A stretch of DNA of 64,000 nucleotides from an uncultured bacterium (GCA_905216055.1 CAJMSH010000002.1:167079-231078), one strand, 5' to 3'. Shown: positions 14,762 through 41,676, counted from the stretch's first letter. The notes: generated from the sequence alone by a model not told the origin. Made by a program: numbers and translations.

Positions 14762-14812
14762 ACAAAAAGGGCGGTCAAATTGTGACCGCCACCTTTATAT
14801 TTTTGTATTTTT
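14762..14812 (-). terminator. GC-rich hairpin terminator between the serpin gene and radA
   Basis: ggcggtca aattg tgaccgcc stem with T-tracts on both flanks. Confidence 0.65.
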
Positions 14813-14819
14813 TATGTTT

Positions 14820-15860
14820 TTATTTTCTGCCTGTTTTATTTATCAAAGATACATCATCAACTCTCAATGCAAAGTATGGTTTGATTTTATCAGATTCTTG
14901 CAAGAACATTACAAATGTATCGTCAAAATTGAAATCACGAGATTTTACTCTTTCAGGTATCAAAGATGACATTGTAACCGCGATTGCAGCTTCCGATTTC
15001 AATTTAACCCCTTCATTATCCATTTTAAAATCTATTGTTTCCAATGCTTGAGAAATCAGCATATCAGTTCCTTGAATTTTGTGATTACACAATTCATCAA
15101 AAGATTTTTCTCTATATAAGTTGATATTAGGAATTTTTAATTCATCATCAGAATTGAATTTTCTTGGTCCTTCATAAGTGTCTTTCTTCCTTAACATATC
15201 AGCATATAATTTATCGAAAGTCTTGTTATCTTCTGTTCTGTACAGATAAACAACATCATTACCATCAGTTCTGATTGAAACAGCAAAATCATCTTTTGAA
15301 TTATAGAACAATACATTAACCATATTATCCAAAACTCTATCGCTATTTTTATCAATTCCGAAATAATCAACTTTTTTGAAAGAATGAGCAAATCTTGCAG
15401 GTTTCAACTTATCAAATGCAGTCAAGAATTTAAAATCCTTTTTCAACATTGCATACAAGAAATATTTTCCAGGTCCAGGAGTCCAGTCAACAGAATCTAA
15501 AATATCACTTGTTTCATCAAATTTTTCTTTTATGCCTTCTTCAATCTGTTTTTTTAGCTCTGGAGAAGTTTCACCATAAGCCTTATAATATGAATCTTCA
15601 GAAAGCTGATCTACATTAAATTTTTTCTTGTTTAATTGTTTTACAAGCGGAGATTTGTAACCTTCAAACTTTACAGGTCCTTTTACAATTCCATCCATCA
15701 AATCATTCCATACAAGCTGAAATGTACCAACCCAAACTCTGTTAGCCTGAGATGATTCATAAGACATTACCGGCAAAACGTCCAAATTTTTATCTGTTTT
15801 AGCCATTACCGAACCACTTGCTAAAAGCATAATACTTAACAATAATACTAATTTTTTCAT
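14820..15860 (-). CDS. Secreted serpin-family protein (serine protease inhibitor-like)
   Basis: 346 aa with signal peptide; C-terminal hinge/reactive-centre-loop-like SEAAIAVTMSS, then FNFDDTFVMFL and PYFALRVDD, resembling serpin consensus EAAAATA / F.ADHPFLFFI / LFMGRV. Confidence 0.6.
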   Translation of the reverse strand: MKKLVLLLSIMLLASGSVMAKTDKNLDVLPVMSYESSQANRVWVGTFQLVWNDLMDGIVKGPVKFEGYKSPLVKQLNKKKFNVDQLSEDSYYKAYGETSPELKKQIEEGIKEKFDETSDILDSVDWTPGPGKYFLYAMLKKDFKFLTAFDKLKPARFAHSFKKVDYFGIDKNSDRVLDNMVNVLFYNSKDDFAVSIRTDGNDVVYLYRTEDNKTFDKLYADMLRKKDTYEGPRKFNSDDELKIPNINLYREKSFDELCNHKIQGTDMLISQALETIDFKMDNEGVKLKSEAAIAVTMSSLIPERVKSRDFNFDDTFVMFLQESDKIKPYFALRVDDVSLINKTGRK

Positions 15861-15884
15861 CTTTTCTCCTTATTTAACTCTCTG

Positions 15885-16250
15885 CTATTTTATATTCAGA
15901 AATCTCAAAAAACTTTTCAAGAAACCTTTTACATTTTTTTCATGAGGAATATTAGCACACGCATAATATTTTTCATAATTATTTATAATATTTTCAGGCA
16001 AATTTTTTCCTCTTTCAAGAATATTCGAAATAAATTCAAGATAATCATCCTGTTCCTCACGGTATAATTTATCTCTTGCGCGAATATCCTCATCAGCCTC
16101 ATAATGAATTAGAGCATGATAAGCCGCCTGAATACTTTTATCTTCAGTATCACGCGGAAAATTTAAAATTGCTTCCCTCACACACATACGAGAAATTAAC
16201 ACCTGACGTATAAGCGATGCAACAAATTGTCTATCTTTAATTAAATCCAT
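15885..16250 (-). CDS. Hypothetical protein (121 aa), translationally coupled to the upstream repressor gene
   Basis: 7-nt gap to the BlaI-like gene; no TM segment, no HExxH, no recognisable domain. Confidence 0.5.
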   Translation of the reverse strand: MDLIKDRQFVASLIRQVLISRMCVREAILNFPRDTEDKSIQAAYHALIHYEADEDIRARDKLYREEQDDYLEFISNILERGKNLPENIINNYEKYYACANIPHEKNVKGFLKSFLRFLNIK

Positions 16251-16257
16251 TTGTTTA

Positions 16258-16599
16258 CTACACTAACACGTCTTGAATATTCTTATCAATGAACTTAATC
16301 ATATTAGTATAATTACCGTCAAAATAGTTTTCGGCAACAGTTTTAATAGCTTCTGAAGCCATTTCAGACTTACTCATTGCAGCTTTATAAAAGAATTTTT
16401 TTCCAACCTTATAACGTACAAGAACAGATTTTACAGTAAGTCTGTCCATAACGGTTTTTATTGTTGTGTAAGCACGTAAAACACCGTTTGCAGACAAATC
16501 ATCAACAATATCTTGAATGGAAATATCTCTATCTTCATCATTCTCAGTCAATTTCCAGAATGAATTTAAAATATCAATTTCCAACTTGCCGCACACCAT
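16258..16599 (-). CDS. BlaI/MecI/CopY-family transcriptional repressor (penicillinase-repressor winged helix)
   Basis: 113 aa; pattern LEIDILNSFW...DIVDDL...AYTTIKTVMDRLTVKSVLVRYKVGKKFFY matches the BlaI family fold. Confidence 0.75.
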   Translation of the reverse strand: MVCGKLEIDILNSFWKLTENDEDRDISIQDIVDDLSANGVLRAYTTIKTVMDRLTVKSVLVRYKVGKKFFYKAAMSKSEMASEAIKTVAENYFDGNYTNMIKFIDKNIQDVLV

Positions 16600-16639
16600 A
16601 TATTCCTCTACTTTCTTTGTTTCATTATCAACTACTAAT

Positions 16640-16693
16640 ATTGTAACACAAAATTATTTTATTGCAACCAAATTTTACAAAAATCGTTACAAT
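16640..16693 (-). promoter_or_regulatory. Candidate operator for the BlaI-like repressor: inverted repeat ATTGTAAC ... GTTACAAT with internal TTGCAA/TTACAA half-sites
   Basis: 8-bp perfect inverted repeat ~40-90 nt upstream of the repressor start; TGTAA/TTACA half-sites resemble BlaI/MecI operators. Confidence 0.4.
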
Positions 16694-17166
16694 CACTGAA
16701 TATCAAGAAGATCTTCTTCTTTCTTAAAATTAGTTTTTCTTCTTCTTAATCTTAAATTTTTCTTTTTAGTTTTTTCAGGCACACTACGATAAGCATTATC
16801 TAAAGAAATTTTAGTTAAAGCTGTTCCCTTTCTCCTATCATAAAATGTCAACCAAAAACTTCTGTTCACATTATCAACAGCAAATGACACACGACCTGCA
16901 AACTTATCTCCCGGACGGATTTGTTTAAACATCAACTTTGTATCACCAAATATTGACGGTCTGAAAACTGAATTGTAATCATTTACTAAAGCCATATCAA
17001 GTCCTGAAAATGTCTTGTCAGACATATTTGAAATCATAACAGTAAGTGTAATTGTATTAACTTCTCCAAAAGGATCTTTTTCATGTTTGATATCGCTTAT
17101 ATGAATATCAAGTCCCGGGTAAAACATTTCATGTTGCATTAATGCAGATTCTTTATAAACAGGCAA
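16693..17166 (-). CDS. Hypothetical protein (157 aa), possible beta-sandwich domain with basic C-terminal tail
   Basis: ORF; K/R-rich C-terminus (KKKNLRLRRRKTNFKKEE); no confident family. Confidence 0.45.
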   Translation of the reverse strand: MPVYKESALMQHEMFYPGLDIHISDIKHEKDPFGEVNTITLTVMISNMSDKTFSGLDMALVNDYNSVFRPSIFGDTKLMFKQIRPGDKFAGRVSFAVDNVNRSFWLTFYDRRKGTALTKISLDNAYRSVPEKTKKKNLRLRRRKTNFKKEEDLLDIQ

Positions 17167-17214
17167 AGGAACAGAAGTATTAATTTTTAATCTTATTTCA
17201 TCTCCGGGAGATAT

Positions 17215-17865
17215 CTAAAAGTCATTTACTTTTCTTATCAAAGCCATCCCAAGACCAATCGCTCCGCCTATTGCAGCGCCTCCAGCAACAGTATAACCTT
17301 GAGATGCAATAGCTGCTTCAAGTCCCAACCAATTCAACGCCATAAAACCGCCAACAGCCCCACCTGCCAATGTATAACCGACATCTTGGGCTACAATTTT
17401 TGAAGTTTCCGCGATAGGATGAAGCTTCGTGGACATTTTACCCTCAATAGGAATTTCACGACCATCAGGTGTAACCAAATAGTCAAAATCCAAAGATATC
17501 CATGCCTGACGTCCAAGACGTTTTGCATCACCTGTTTGGGAAATTCTGCCATGAGCAATAGTTCCTTTCGGAATAATTACCCCGGTATCACCCATAACTT
17601 CATCAGTAACTTCCGCAAAGAATTCATCACCTTCCATATTAATGTTACTGTCAAGAACCTGAGAAACTGTCATATTAATAACATCTTTTCTCTCTAAATG
17701 TTCAACTTGTCCGGTAAATAATTCTTTTTGAAGTTGCTGCTCATAAACATCTGTTTTTTCAGCATGACCTTCTAAAACTTCAGCATAAACTAAAGTGTTA
17801 CAAGATAAAAAAGATACTAATAATAACGAGGCAATAAATTTTTTCATAGCAAAATTATACAACAC
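17215..17865 (-). CDS. Secreted/lipoprotein-like protein with C-terminal glycine-zipper transmembrane motif (SlyB/17-kDa-antigen-like)
   Basis: 216 aa; signal peptide MKKFIASLLLVSFLSC; C-terminal GGAVGGFMALNWLGLEAAIASQGYTVAGGAAIGGAIGLGMAL glycine zipper. Confidence 0.55.
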   Translation of the reverse strand: MLYNFAMKKFIASLLLVSFLSCNTLVYAEVLEGHAEKTDVYEQQLQKELFTGQVEHLERKDVINMTVSQVLDSNINMEGDEFFAEVTDEVMGDTGVIIPKGTIAHGRISQTGDAKRLGRQAWISLDFDYLVTPDGREIPIEGKMSTKLHPIAETSKIVAQDVGYTLAGGAVGGFMALNWLGLEAAIASQGYTVAGGAAIGGAIGLGMALIRKVNDF

Positions 17866-17978: not shown

Positions 17979-18278
17979 ATGCGTTGGTATGATTTAGAGC
18001 CAGATGTTTGCATGGCAATTAGTATGATTGAGTGTGCACCGCCTAATGCACAAGTTGAATATGCTGAATATATTATTAAACTTGTTCAAGAAAAAGATAA
18101 AGATTTCGATTATCTCAAAAACATTACAAAAACAAACTTAGCAAACAGATATCAAAGATGGTATGATAGAAATGAAACGGTTTCTAAAGCTTTTGCCTAT
18201 TTAAAAGAAACAAAAAAAGAATTACAAAAAGAAATTTCTCTATCTGTACTTGCATATATGAATTCTGCAGTTGCTTAG
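17979..18278 (+). CDS. Small hypothetical protein with internally duplicated RWYD motif (99 aa)
   Basis: RBS gggaggaagcttaATG; RWYDLEPDV... and RWYDRNETVSKAF... internal repeat. Confidence 0.55.
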   Translation: MRWYDLEPDVCMAISMIECAPPNAQVEYAEYIIKLVQEKDKDFDYLKNITKTNLANRYQRWYDRNETVSKAFAYLKETKKELQKEISLSVLAYMNSAVA

Positions 18279-18316: not shown

Positions 18317-18631
18317 ATGAAAAAGCGTTGGTATGATTTTGATCCAACAGTAAGTAGAGCTGTTGCCGAACTTGAAAAAGCTGAAGAATACATTCAGGTT
18401 CGTTGTGCTGACTTTATTATAGACAAATTAAAAGATATTGATTTCAATATCGAAATGTCTTTAGATGATCAGTACAACTATATTATGCGAAGATGGTACG
18501 ATAAGAATATTAAAGTTTCACATGCAATGGAATATCTAAAAAATGCCCCAATAGATATTAGAAAAGAACTTGCGCTTGAAATTATTGACTTTATAAAAGA
18601 ATACAAAGACTACGAGAAAAAATTTAAGTAG
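18317..18631 (+). CDS. Paralog of the upstream RWYD-repeat small protein (104 aa)
   Basis: KRWYDFDPTVSRAV... and RRWYDKNIKVSHAM...; same two-repeat architecture as the 17979 gene. Confidence 0.55.
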   Translation: MKKRWYDFDPTVSRAVAELEKAEEYIQVRCADFIIDKLKDIDFNIEMSLDDQYNYIMRRWYDKNIKVSHAMEYLKNAPIDIRKELALEIIDFIKEYKDYEKKFK

Positions 18632-39951: not shown

Positions 39952-41676
39952 ATGAGAGAGTTTGAATTTAATCTTTCTATGGAAGAATTAGAAAAACGTA
40001 CCAGCAAAGATTACTTAATGACAAAAAAGATGCTTAAATGTGATGCACCTGAATATTTAGAGCTTGCAGACGGCGATAAAGAAGCTCTTAAACATCTTGT
40101 TAAAGCTGCTTATATCTTAGAAAAAATCAATATGCAAATTGACTGCCATCACAACCTTGAATTCAAAGCGTTTTTAGAAGAAGAAATCAAAAAAGGAAAC
40201 AAACAAGCTGAACTTACAAAAATTCTTTTTGATGCGCAGAAAGGTATGAACGCAATAGATACAATGTCTAACAAAATTAATCTTGCAAAAGGAATAAAAG
40301 AATTCCCAGGTAAAGGCGTTTACCCTGAAGACTTGTCAAAAGAAGAGTTCCACAGCATTCTAACTAAAATGGTTAATGAAGGTAAAATTGATGAAGTCAA
40401 AAAAATATTAACTCAACGTTCAGTTGTTGAAAGAAAAGGCGATGAATTAATCGGAATAGATTATATTGATAAATTCAAAGATGATTTTTCAAAAATGGCT
40501 GATGAAATTGAAAAAGCATCAGAAACATCTACCAACGAAGATTTCAACGAATACTTAAAACTTCAAGCCAAAGCTCTTAGAAAAGCTGATCCAATGCTTG
40601 ATGCTTACGCAGATAAAAAATGGGCAACACTTCAAGACACCCCTCTTGAATTTACAATCACAAGAGAAAACTACGAAGACGAAATGACAGGAACAATTGT
40701 TGAAAATAAAGAACTTTCAGAACTTCTTGAAAAACACGGTATCAAAGCTACTCCAAAAGATTTTCTCGGCGGCAGAGTCGGAATTGTAAACAAAAAAGGA
40801 ACAGATGCTCTTATGGCAATAAAAAAATATCTTCCGACACTTGCAAAAAATATGCCTTATGCTGATGAGTATGAACAAAACATTAACCCTAACAGTGATG
40901 CAAAACAAACAATGGTTGATGTTGATTTGGTAGCTGTAACAGGAGATGTCGGCGCATATAGAGGCGGTATTACACTTGCAGAAAACTTACCGAATGATGA
41001 CAAATTGTCACTTACAATAGGTGGTGGCAGACGCAACGTTTACCATAGACAAATCCGTTTCATAAGCGATATGAAAAAGCTTCAAGAAAGATTAGATGCA
41101 ATCTTGGATAAAGACCAACACAAATATTATTTAGATGAAGCAGATCACTGGTTCACAATCGGACATGAAAATGCGCATTCTCTCGGACCTAAAAAAGCTT
41201 GTGAAACTCTTGGCAAATACAGAAATATTATTGAAGAAAACAAAGCCGATATGGGTTCTTTAGCATTTGTTGACTTATTGACAGAACTTGGGATGTACAC
41301 GGATGAACAAAGGAAACAAATTATTGTAACAACAGTTACAGACAATTTCTTAAAATCAAAACCGACTCTTAGCCAAGCTCACAGAGTCCGCACAGTAATG
41401 CAAAATAAATATTTTGCAGACCGCAAAGGCTATGAAATTATTGACGGGAAAATTCATGTAAATATCGACAAAGTAGTTCCTATTGCAAAAGAAATGCTTG
41501 CTGAAATTGTACGTATTCAAATTGATGGAAGCTTTGACAAAGCAGAAAAATACGTACTTGATAATTTTGTATGGACAGACAATATGGAATTTATTGCTCA
41601 AAAATTACAAAAAATAAGCAAAACATTAAATGGTAGAACAGAATCAGAACTTGCAGAAAAACTACTTAACGAATAA
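39952..41676 (+). CDS. Hypothetical protein with HExxH zinc-metallopeptidase-like motif (574 aa)
   Basis: WFTIGHENAHSLGP with downstream EENKAD (possible third ligand); no signal peptide; family not recognised. Confidence 0.5.
   Translation: MREFEFNLSMEELEKRTSKDYLMTKKMLKCDAPEYLELADGDKEALKHLVKAAYILEKINMQIDCHHNLEFKAFLEEEIKKGNKQAELTKILFDAQKGMNAIDTMSNKINLAKGIKEFPGKGVYPEDLSKEEFHSILTKMVNEGKIDEVKKILTQRSVVERKGDELIGIDYIDKFKDDFSKMADEIEKASETSTNEDFNEYLKLQAKALRKADPMLDAYADKKWATLQDTPLEFTITRENYEDEMTGTIVENKELSELLEKHGIKATPKDFLGGRVGIVNKKGTDALMAIKKYLPTLAKNMPYADEYEQNINPNSDAKQTMVDVDLVAVTGDVGAYRGGITLAENLPNDDKLSLTIGGGRRNVYHRQIRFISDMKKLQERLDAILDKDQHKYYLDEADHWFTIGHENAHSLGPKKACETLGKYRNIIEENKADMGSLAFVDLLTELGMYTDEQRKQIIVTTVTDNFLKSKPTLSQAHRVRTVMQNKYFADRKGYEIIDGKIHVNIDKVVPIAKEMLAEIVRIQIDGSFDKAEKYVLDNFVWTDNMEFIAQKLQKISKTLNGRTESELAEKLLNE

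Follow-up and report, generated by a model that had tools for sequence, protein, structure and literature searches.

A BlaI-like repressor without an adjacent M56 protease, very probably co-transcribed with a secreted serpin-like protein, in human-gut Gastranaerophilales

A 64-kb window of DNA from an uncultured gut bacterium, a member of the human-gut Gastranaerophilales (Melainabacteria/Vampirovibrionia), was analysed around a gene for a BlaI/MecI-like repressor and a gene for a secreted serpin-like protein (all positions are counted on the whole window). As an initial annotation of the locus had described, five co-directional open reading frames (ORFs) run on the minus strand from 17865 to 14820, between radA and two genes referred to as the RWYD genes. 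The last three of these ORFs encode the repressor, a protein of 121 aa and the serpin-like protein, and form an operon that is real, conserved and lineage-restricted. In this lineage, a repressor without an adjacent M56 protease is thus very probably co-transcribed with a secreted protein of the serpin superfamily. The initial annotation had also proposed a dedicated protease-sensing circuit, which is unsupported as stated. The features of the operon are listed below.

16667–16640, minus strand: sigma-70-type promoter of the operon (−35 TTGCAA, 16-nt spacer, extended −10 TGtTACAAT)
16649–16631, minus strand: candidate operator ATGTTACAATATTAGTAGT, which covers the −10 and the probable start point of transcription
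16599–16258, minus strand: BlaI-like repressor, 113 aa, matching PF03965
16250–15885, minus strand: 121-aa partner protein, encoded between the repressor and serpin-like genes
15860–14820, minus strand: serpin-like secreted protein, 346 aa, with a serpin fold
15011–14934, minus strand: residues 284–309 of the serpin-like protein, GVKLKSEAAIAVTMSSLIPERVKSRD, equivalent to the hinge and reactive centre loop (RCL) of serpins, placed by translation, HMMER alignment and ortholog entropy
14790–14770, minus strand: intrinsic terminator, an 8-bp stem with 6 GC pairs, then CTTTTTGTT
14716–13331, minus strand: radA, the downstream flank of the five-ORF block

The gaps of 7 nt (BlaI-like to 121-aa gene) and 24 nt (121-aa to 346-aa gene), from which co-transcription had been proposed, were reproduced, and a scan of the window detected no terminator-like site between the three genes. 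The hairpin called downstream of the serpin-like gene folds as RNA with −18.5 kcal/mol (z = −4.7) and is followed by a T-run. Co-transcription of the repressor, 121-aa and serpin-like genes is therefore supported by the short gaps, by a single conserved promoter/operator ahead of the three genes and by a single terminator after them. Because the sigma-70-type promoter lies directly upstream of the BlaI-like gene, the operon begins at that gene; the preceding gene, which in relatives encodes an exported protein of about 391 aa (see below), has its own promoter. In all 76 loci the 121-aa ORF starts between 25 nt inside and 7 nt after the repressor ORF, and in 71 loci the interval from the 121-aa gene to the serpin-like gene ranges from −11 to +57 nt, often with an overlap. 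In several lineages, moreover, the serpin-like gene runs into radA or almost touches it. In such lineages the operon possibly extends into radA; in the window the terminator stands between the two genes.

A profile scan of genome contigs with the serpin-like family gave 494 matching species stretches, of which the best 80 were examined; 78 of these loci had enough upstream sequence to be judged. The BlaI-like and 121-aa genes were found directly upstream of the serpin-like gene in 62 of the 78. In the remaining 16, the serpin-like gene lies in the same relA...radA neighbourhood without the repressor and 121-aa genes (in L048, for instance, 18 nt behind a DUF167-type gene), and one further locus of this kind (L090) brings the number of serpin-only loci to 17. 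The pair is likewise found without the serpin-like gene: in L087–L089 a convergent HD-domain gene comes next, and in L092 radA follows 8 nt downstream. The latter adjacency (6001–7771 of L092) is reminiscent of the ctsR-mcsA-mcsB-clpC-radA operon of Bacillus subtilis. In L080 and L092 the pair is present without the 391-aa gene. The BlaI-like/121-aa pair is the one invariant of the locus. Since the repressor and the serpin-like gene occur apart in relatives, this co-occurrence check does not support the dedicated BlaI–serpin circuit for protease sensing.

The genes lie in a conserved core-genome region, in which the order is 391-aa gene, BlaI-like gene, 121-aa gene, serpin-like gene, radA, a gap and M16, and the repressor clade has so far been found only in Gastranaerophilales and close relatives. 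L007, a contig of a metagenome-assembled genome, shares 97% identity with the window in the serpin-like gene and 100% in radA; it was deposited as 'uncultured Clostridium sp.', whereas its relatives bear the labels Gastranaerophilales or Melainabacteria. L007, L020, L029, L048 and L063 are public records named Clostridium sp. CAG:768/967, Brachyspira sp. CAG:484 or uncultured Clostridium sp., but in gene content and synteny they agree with the loci labelled Gastranaerophilales.

The promoter of the operon is conserved as TTGAAA-N17-TATGTTACAAT across 63 distinct sequences upstream of the repressor gene; the fuller conserved string in these sequences is TTGAAA-N17-TATGTTACAATGTTAGTAAT. The near-invariance extends 9 nt beyond the −10 hexamer in the 63 loci, and because conservation thus goes past the needs of a promoter, the element is read as an autoregulatory operator. 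Its family consensus is ATGTTACAATGTTAGTAAT, with a TACA-N-TGTt core that resembles the TACA/TGTA boxes of the BlaI family. The element at 16649–16631 would be the site bound by the repressor. Its core, GTTACAATRTTAGTA (16633–16647), is the only site in the 64 kb with fewer than three mismatches, and sites with three mismatches occur at chance level (8 found, 7.1 expected), so that no further operator copies were recognised in the window; the promoter of the 391-aa gene has no copy. Among the related loci, those with the cassette carried the core (at most two mismatches) ahead of the BlaI-like gene, save the divergent L071, where none was found, and it was absent from the 5-kb flanks of the 17 serpin-only loci. 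A further conserved element, TAATTGTAAC (about 16683–16692, minus strand), lies at the stop codon of the 391-aa gene and contains the reverse complement of the operator sequence GTTACAA; the distance from this element down to the operator GTTACAA is 44–45 nt in 44 of the 63 sequences. The repressor might use the element as a second half-site or for looping.

The assignment of the 113-aa protein to the winged-helix BlaI/MecI family was confirmed with the Pfam hidden Markov model (HMM) Penicillinase_R (PF03965; E = 9.6e-17, 61.8 bits against a gathering threshold of 22.6), on which residues 4–103 align to positions 2–94 of 115. Staphylococcus aureus BlaI (1sd4) was matched with E = 0.006, repressor residues 8–107 aligning to BlaI residues 13–105. 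The NCBIfam models were not passed: the BlaI/MecI models scored 14.9–22.2 bits (cut-offs 180–250), and the best match, CopY_TcrY (TIGR02698, E = 7.7e-9), scored 35.9 bits (cut-off 121.95). Judged by these scores, the repressor has no close relative among the characterised BlaI/MecI/CopY members. It contains a single cysteine, at residue 3, and neither the window protein nor the consensus of 66 orthologs has the CopY-type CxCxxxxCxC metal motif. As it has neither a signal peptide nor a hydrophobic transmembrane segment, the repressor is cytoplasmic.

The initial annotation had hypothesised that the repressor is cleaved by a protease, and two features of the protein speak against this. The cleavage site of S. 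aureus BlaI is N101-F102; the aligned pair in the repressor is K102-F103, with Lys instead of Asn at P1. The repressor ends at residue 113, 10 residues past this pair, and its C-terminal domain is therefore shortened (BlaI ends at residue 126, about 13 residues longer). An M56/BlaR1 gene was not found in the 64-kb window, either by a scan of ORFs of at least 80 aa for HExxH or by family searches, and none was called in the 5–6 kb flanks of the related loci with gene tables. The absence of a BlaR1/M56 partner noted earlier thus holds for the operon, the window and the flanks of related loci inspected. The sole HExxH-containing ORF of at least 80 aa in the window (39952–41676, plus strand, 574 aa, motif GHENAHSLGP) matched no Pfam or NCBIfam family; its product may be an uncharacterised metallopeptidase.

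The 121-aa protein had been listed as an unknown; the ORF itself stands, and what had been overlooked is that its product is the invariant partner of the repressor. The search yielded 626 homologues, and the best 120 of the 626 are 66–92% identical and carry no Pfam domain; the loci inspected are in a Gastranaerophilales-type neighbourhood or bear such labels. The databases searched, including PADLOC and PHROGs, gave no function for the protein. The protein is acidic and strongly conserved; residues H45, H49, E51, D53, E54, E66, Q67, D69 and E72 are invariant, and the HxxxHxE...E/D cluster may be a site for a metal or a small ligand. In the AlphaFold2 (AF2) model, residues 1–99 are predicted with confidence to form a helical bundle, for which the structure matches were generic or designed bundles only. 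Amphipathicity peaks in the last 15 residues (KGFLKSFLRFLNIK), which include a cationic helix at 107–117 and resemble membrane-targeting helices such as that of MinD; this C-terminal helix could hold the protein at the membrane. Because of its obligate coupling to the repressor, the 121-aa protein is proposed to be the sensing or anti-repressor component of the system.

The 346-aa protein had been called a secreted serpin. Its signal peptide and its fold bear this out, and the Pfam Serpin HMM does not. The signal peptide spans residues 1–20, leaving a mature part of about 325 aa, and the product is exported by Sec, probably to the periplasm or cell surface of a diderm. The match to Pfam Serpin (PF00079) failed, with 13.6 bits against a threshold of 27 and residues 262–333 only, and a profile of close orthologs gave no match in the PDB. 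The AF2 model, based on 37 orthologs, has a mean predicted local distance difference test score (pLDDT) of 85.3. With this model the top 50 Foldseek matches in the PDB were all serpins, with E-values down to 2e-10, at 9–15% identity to the solved structures; the model thus has the serpin fold, as defined by three sheets, a five- or six-stranded sheet A and the C-terminal s4B-s5B strands. A broader family profile (78 sequences, 29–60% identical to the window protein) matched only serpins in the PDB, albeit weakly (miropin, E = 0.043; alpha-1-antitrypsin, E = 0.1), and these alignments cover exactly s5A, the hinge, the RCL and s4B-s5B. Among the 78 diverse family members, 16 matched Pfam Serpin at E ≤ 0.01 (best 3.5e-7). 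Because the Pfam match of the window protein is below threshold, the serpin call rests on the fold together with a weak, consistent C-terminal signature.

Conservation along the C-terminal part follows the layout of a serpin loop. The hinge (residues 284–297, GVKLKSEAAIAVTM) is conserved among orthologs, with an entropy of 0.56 compared with a protein mean of 0.99; the 12 residues that follow (298–309) are hypervariable (entropy 1.73) and contain indels, after which a conserved block, FNFDDTFVMFLQE...PYF, resumes where serpins have their F-x-x-D-x-P-F...P-x-F signature. HMMER places the EG-VKL-KSEAAIA hinge, residues 298–309 and FNFDDTF...PYF on the RCL region of both miropin and alpha-1-antitrypsin. 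In the AF2 model the pLDDT is below 50 at residues 300–308. Counted by hand, the distance from the hinge Gly to the F-x-F motif is 25 residues, compared with 19 in alpha-1-antitrypsin and 23 in miropin, and the hinge carries either three extra residues or bulky residues, depending on the register. Given the serpin fold, the conserved hinge and the hypervariable, bait-like loop, the 346-aa product is most likely directed at proteases, whether it inhibits them or is cut by them as a bait.

The protein belongs to a large family. When 1.84 billion cluster representatives (clusters defined at 50% identity) were searched with a profile, 2,459 clusters matched at E ≤ 1e-3, and the number at E ≤ 1e-10 was 1,511. 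The precomputed Pfam annotation was empty for all 120 homologues listed, and one ortholog with a name is entered as 'hypothetical protein' or 'DUF4340 domain-containing'. As it carries no Serpin annotation, the family would probably be missed by annotation-based serpin surveys, for instance of the gut microbiome. An N-terminal extracytoplasmic function (ECF) sigma-70 domain (regions 2 and 4) is present in 6 of the best 150 representatives (P0257, P0267, P0319, P0350, P0357 and P0375). In P0257 the sigma domain passes the NCBIfam sigma70-ECF cut-off, and a hydrophobic, transmembrane-like segment can be read in the sequence between the sigma and serpin-like domains; the fusion is intact on 10 metagenome contigs and is represented by loci L096–L098. 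We know of no description of such a sigma–serpin-like architecture. It suggests that a serpin-type loop can serve as the extracytoplasmic sensor of a membrane-tethered sigma factor, and that loops of this type may be used in signalling as well as in inhibition. Other representatives carry long C-terminal ankyrin arrays or N-terminal Sel1 repeats on the serpin-like domain (P0275, P0281, P0365 and P0337).

On balance we favour, with slightly better than even confidence, an autoregulated BlaI–121-aa module with the serpin-like gene as co-transcribed cargo in this lineage. The promoter at 16667–16640 would drive the repressor, 121-aa and serpin-like genes, and transcription would end at the hairpin at 14790–14770. 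By sitting on ATGTTACAATGTTAGTAAT over the −10 and start site, the repressor would shut off its own operon, and the 121-aa protein would be its dedicated partner, a signal-sensing or anti-repressor component in the place of BlaR1. The serpin-like gene would be a cargo of the lineage located between the pair and radA, with its product exported by Sec. Several points weigh against this interpretation. Its weakest step is the role of the 121-aa protein, which is a guess from linkage alone, and the searches found no informative structural or sequence relative of that protein. The conserved element could be a promoter and initial-transcribed-region signal alone, an M56 protease may be encoded elsewhere in the genome, beyond the 64-kb window, and, as all examples are from Gastranaerophilales, the gene order is possibly in part inherited synteny. 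Taken to its end, the last point would mean that the pair controls only itself or radA and that the serpin-like gene is expressed from a signal inside the 121-aa gene. The position of the whole block in a conserved core-genome region would fit this, as would the loss of each of its elements in some loci, the 8 nt between the pair and radA in L092, and the contacts or near-contacts of the serpin-like gene with radA in several others. We nevertheless consider it unlikely: the 121-aa/serpin-like interval found in the 71 loci leaves no room for an intergenic promoter, and no terminator separates these two genes in the window.

The circuit of the initial annotation, in which exogenous proteases of the gut lumen cleave the repressor and thereby derepress a secreted inhibitor, is very improbable. 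The repressor is very probably co-transcribed with a serpin-fold protein, and it retains Phe at the position aligned to BlaI F102, but the Lys at P1 and the shortened C-terminal domain argue against cleavage. Classical family members are inactivated by proteolysis; in the known systems, however, the cut is the work of the cytosolic metalloprotease domain of BlaR1 (PMC7593790), and lumenal proteases are unable to reach the repressor because it is cytoplasmic, which makes direct cleavage by them topologically implausible. The independent occurrence of the two genes is a further point against it. A signal from outside could also arrive indirectly, if an exported protein (the 391-aa protein or a serpin-like bait) were cleaved or damaged and the membrane-associated 121-aa protein then released the repressor without BlaR1. 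The C-terminal amphipathic helix of the 121-aa protein is in line with such a relay, as is the position of the 391-aa gene, which is the next gene upstream in most cassette loci (69 of 95 loci have both halves). The ECF sigma–serpin-like fusions of other bacteria have the architecture expected of an extracytoplasmic sensor domain, and a protease-induced transcription of a serpin gene, through a two-component system, is reported for Bifidobacterium (PMC8201313). Contact between these proteins is an assumption, however; the 391-aa gene has a nonsense codon in this genome and is absent from L080 and L092 although the pair persists there, and the pair also persists without the serpin-like gene. 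We regard the relay as quite doubtful.

The favoured module leaves the activity of its cargo to be weighed separately. That the 346-aa protein is a stable, constitutively loop-inserted serpin fold without inhibitory activity, using its variable loop for binding, recognition or sensing, has in our estimate somewhat less than an even chance. The AF2 model is in the loop-inserted conformation; AF2, however, is unreliable at choosing between serpin conformers. The conserved hinge, the hypervariable segment and the F-x-F-D-D-T-F...P-Y-F signature are the pattern of inhibitory serpins, and the 25-residue loop is near the 23 residues of miropin, an inhibitory bacterial serpin. It is improbable that two stronger propositions hold jointly, namely that control is BlaR1-independent and runs through a membrane-peripheral, maybe metal-binding 121-aa protein, and that the family is an unrecognised serpin branch acting as an extracytoplasmic protease bait or sensor. 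If both were true, the operon would be protease-responsive, with the serpin-like protein as the sensing element, the 121-aa protein as the relay and a repressor that is not itself the substrate.

Compared with the S. aureus systems BlaI/BlaR1 and MecI/MecR1(/MecR2), the locus has in common the Penicillinase_R winged helix (with the 1sd4 alignment), apparent autoregulation and a conserved, promoter-overlapping element with a TACA...TGT core. MecR2 is a precedent for a third, anti-repressor component. Unlike in S. aureus, no M56 sensor-protease is adjacent or within the 64-kb window, K-F stands in place of N-F at the aligned cleavage site, about 13 residues are missing from the C-terminal domain, and the NCBIfam BlaI and MecI models score 15–22 bits against cut-offs of 180–250; the partner is a 121-aa soluble helical bundle, and the cargo is neither a beta-lactamase nor a penicillin-binding protein. 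CopY/TcrY belongs to the same Pfam family and is the best NCBIfam match (E = 7.7e-9); CopY needs no M56 protease and has a small accessory partner, CopZ. In contrast to CopY/TcrY, the repressor lacks the C-terminal CxCxxxxCxC motif and there is no copper ATPase in the operon. Repressors of the BlaI family are understood either through cleavage by an M56 sensor-protease or, for CopY, through metal exchange, and this repressor fits neither paradigm; being locked to a 121-aa partner, it points to a third mode of control.

The serpin-like protein differs from the canonical bacterial serpins (thermopin, tengpin, miropin, the siropins and the Bifidobacterium serpin) in that it is below the Pfam threshold, about 45–75 residues shorter and 9–15% identical to solved serpins, with a loop-inserted model; it is known here from sequence and model. 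The nearest regulatory parallel is a gut bacterium, Bifidobacterium breve, in which a serpin is under an autoregulated two-component system and is reported to be induced by host and bacterial proteases (PMC8201313, citing Turroni 2010 and Alvarez-Martin 2012). Both cases thus have a serpin under a dedicated, autoregulated transcriptional system; in B. breve a histidine kinase in the membrane acts as the sensor, together with a response regulator, whereas here the regulator is a one-component BlaI-type repressor with a small partner, and the linkage of serpin and repressor is not obligate. Since it is known from Bifidobacterium (PMC8201313), protease-induced serpin expression in gut bacteria is not new as a concept. 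A literature search gave no paper linking Melainabacteria with serpins or BlaI with serpins; the matches to BlaI and serpin together were unrelated. A role of the locus in anti-phage defence was rejected, a PADLOC run having given no meaningful match.

The region upstream of the operon contains the following features.

17865–16693, minus strand: broken envelope-protein gene, about 384–391 aa in relatives
17865–17215, minus strand: ORF of 216 aa, the 5' half of the broken gene
17166–16693, minus strand: ORF of 157 aa, the 3' half of the broken gene
17881–17854, minus strand: promoter of the 391-aa gene, TTGAAT-16-TATAAT preceded by TGTTG, conserved
17979–18278 and 18317–18631, plus strand: RWYD genes, paralogues, 37% identical

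The 216-aa and 157-aa ORFs, previously taken for two separate genes (a lipoprotein and an unknown), lie in the same frame in the window, are collinear with a single ORF of 384–391 aa in relatives, and represent one gene of about 391 aa split by a TTG>TAG nonsense codon. The in-frame TAG is at 17217–17215; the codon is TTG in L007 and others, and the 391-aa ORF is unbroken at that codon in all 69 other loci in which both halves were found (69 of 95). The single T>A change sits in a cluster of substitutions relative to L007, and the TAG reflects either a real mutation to a stop codon or a mistake in the assembly. The lipoprotein identity was ruled out, as the Cys is missing from the intact ortholog in L001. 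The features recognised in the 391-aa protein are a signal peptide, a beta-rich domain, a hydrophobic region with a glycine zipper and a Lys-rich tail; the protein matched no family in Pfam, NCBIfam, the PDB or PHROGs, apart from a weak DUF4352-like hint (Pfam) in its C-terminal half. The −10 of its promoter is only 6 nt before a conserved ATG at 17847, which suggests a leaderless or near-leaderless mRNA, and the GTG start listed for the upstream ORF is probably wrong.

The RWYD genes matched no family. Homologues were found in 67–68 of the 95 related loci, L001 and L093 among them, where they lie just upstream of the 391-aa gene and on the opposite strand. Each RWYD gene contains an internal duplication, residues 2–38 resembling residues 59–95.

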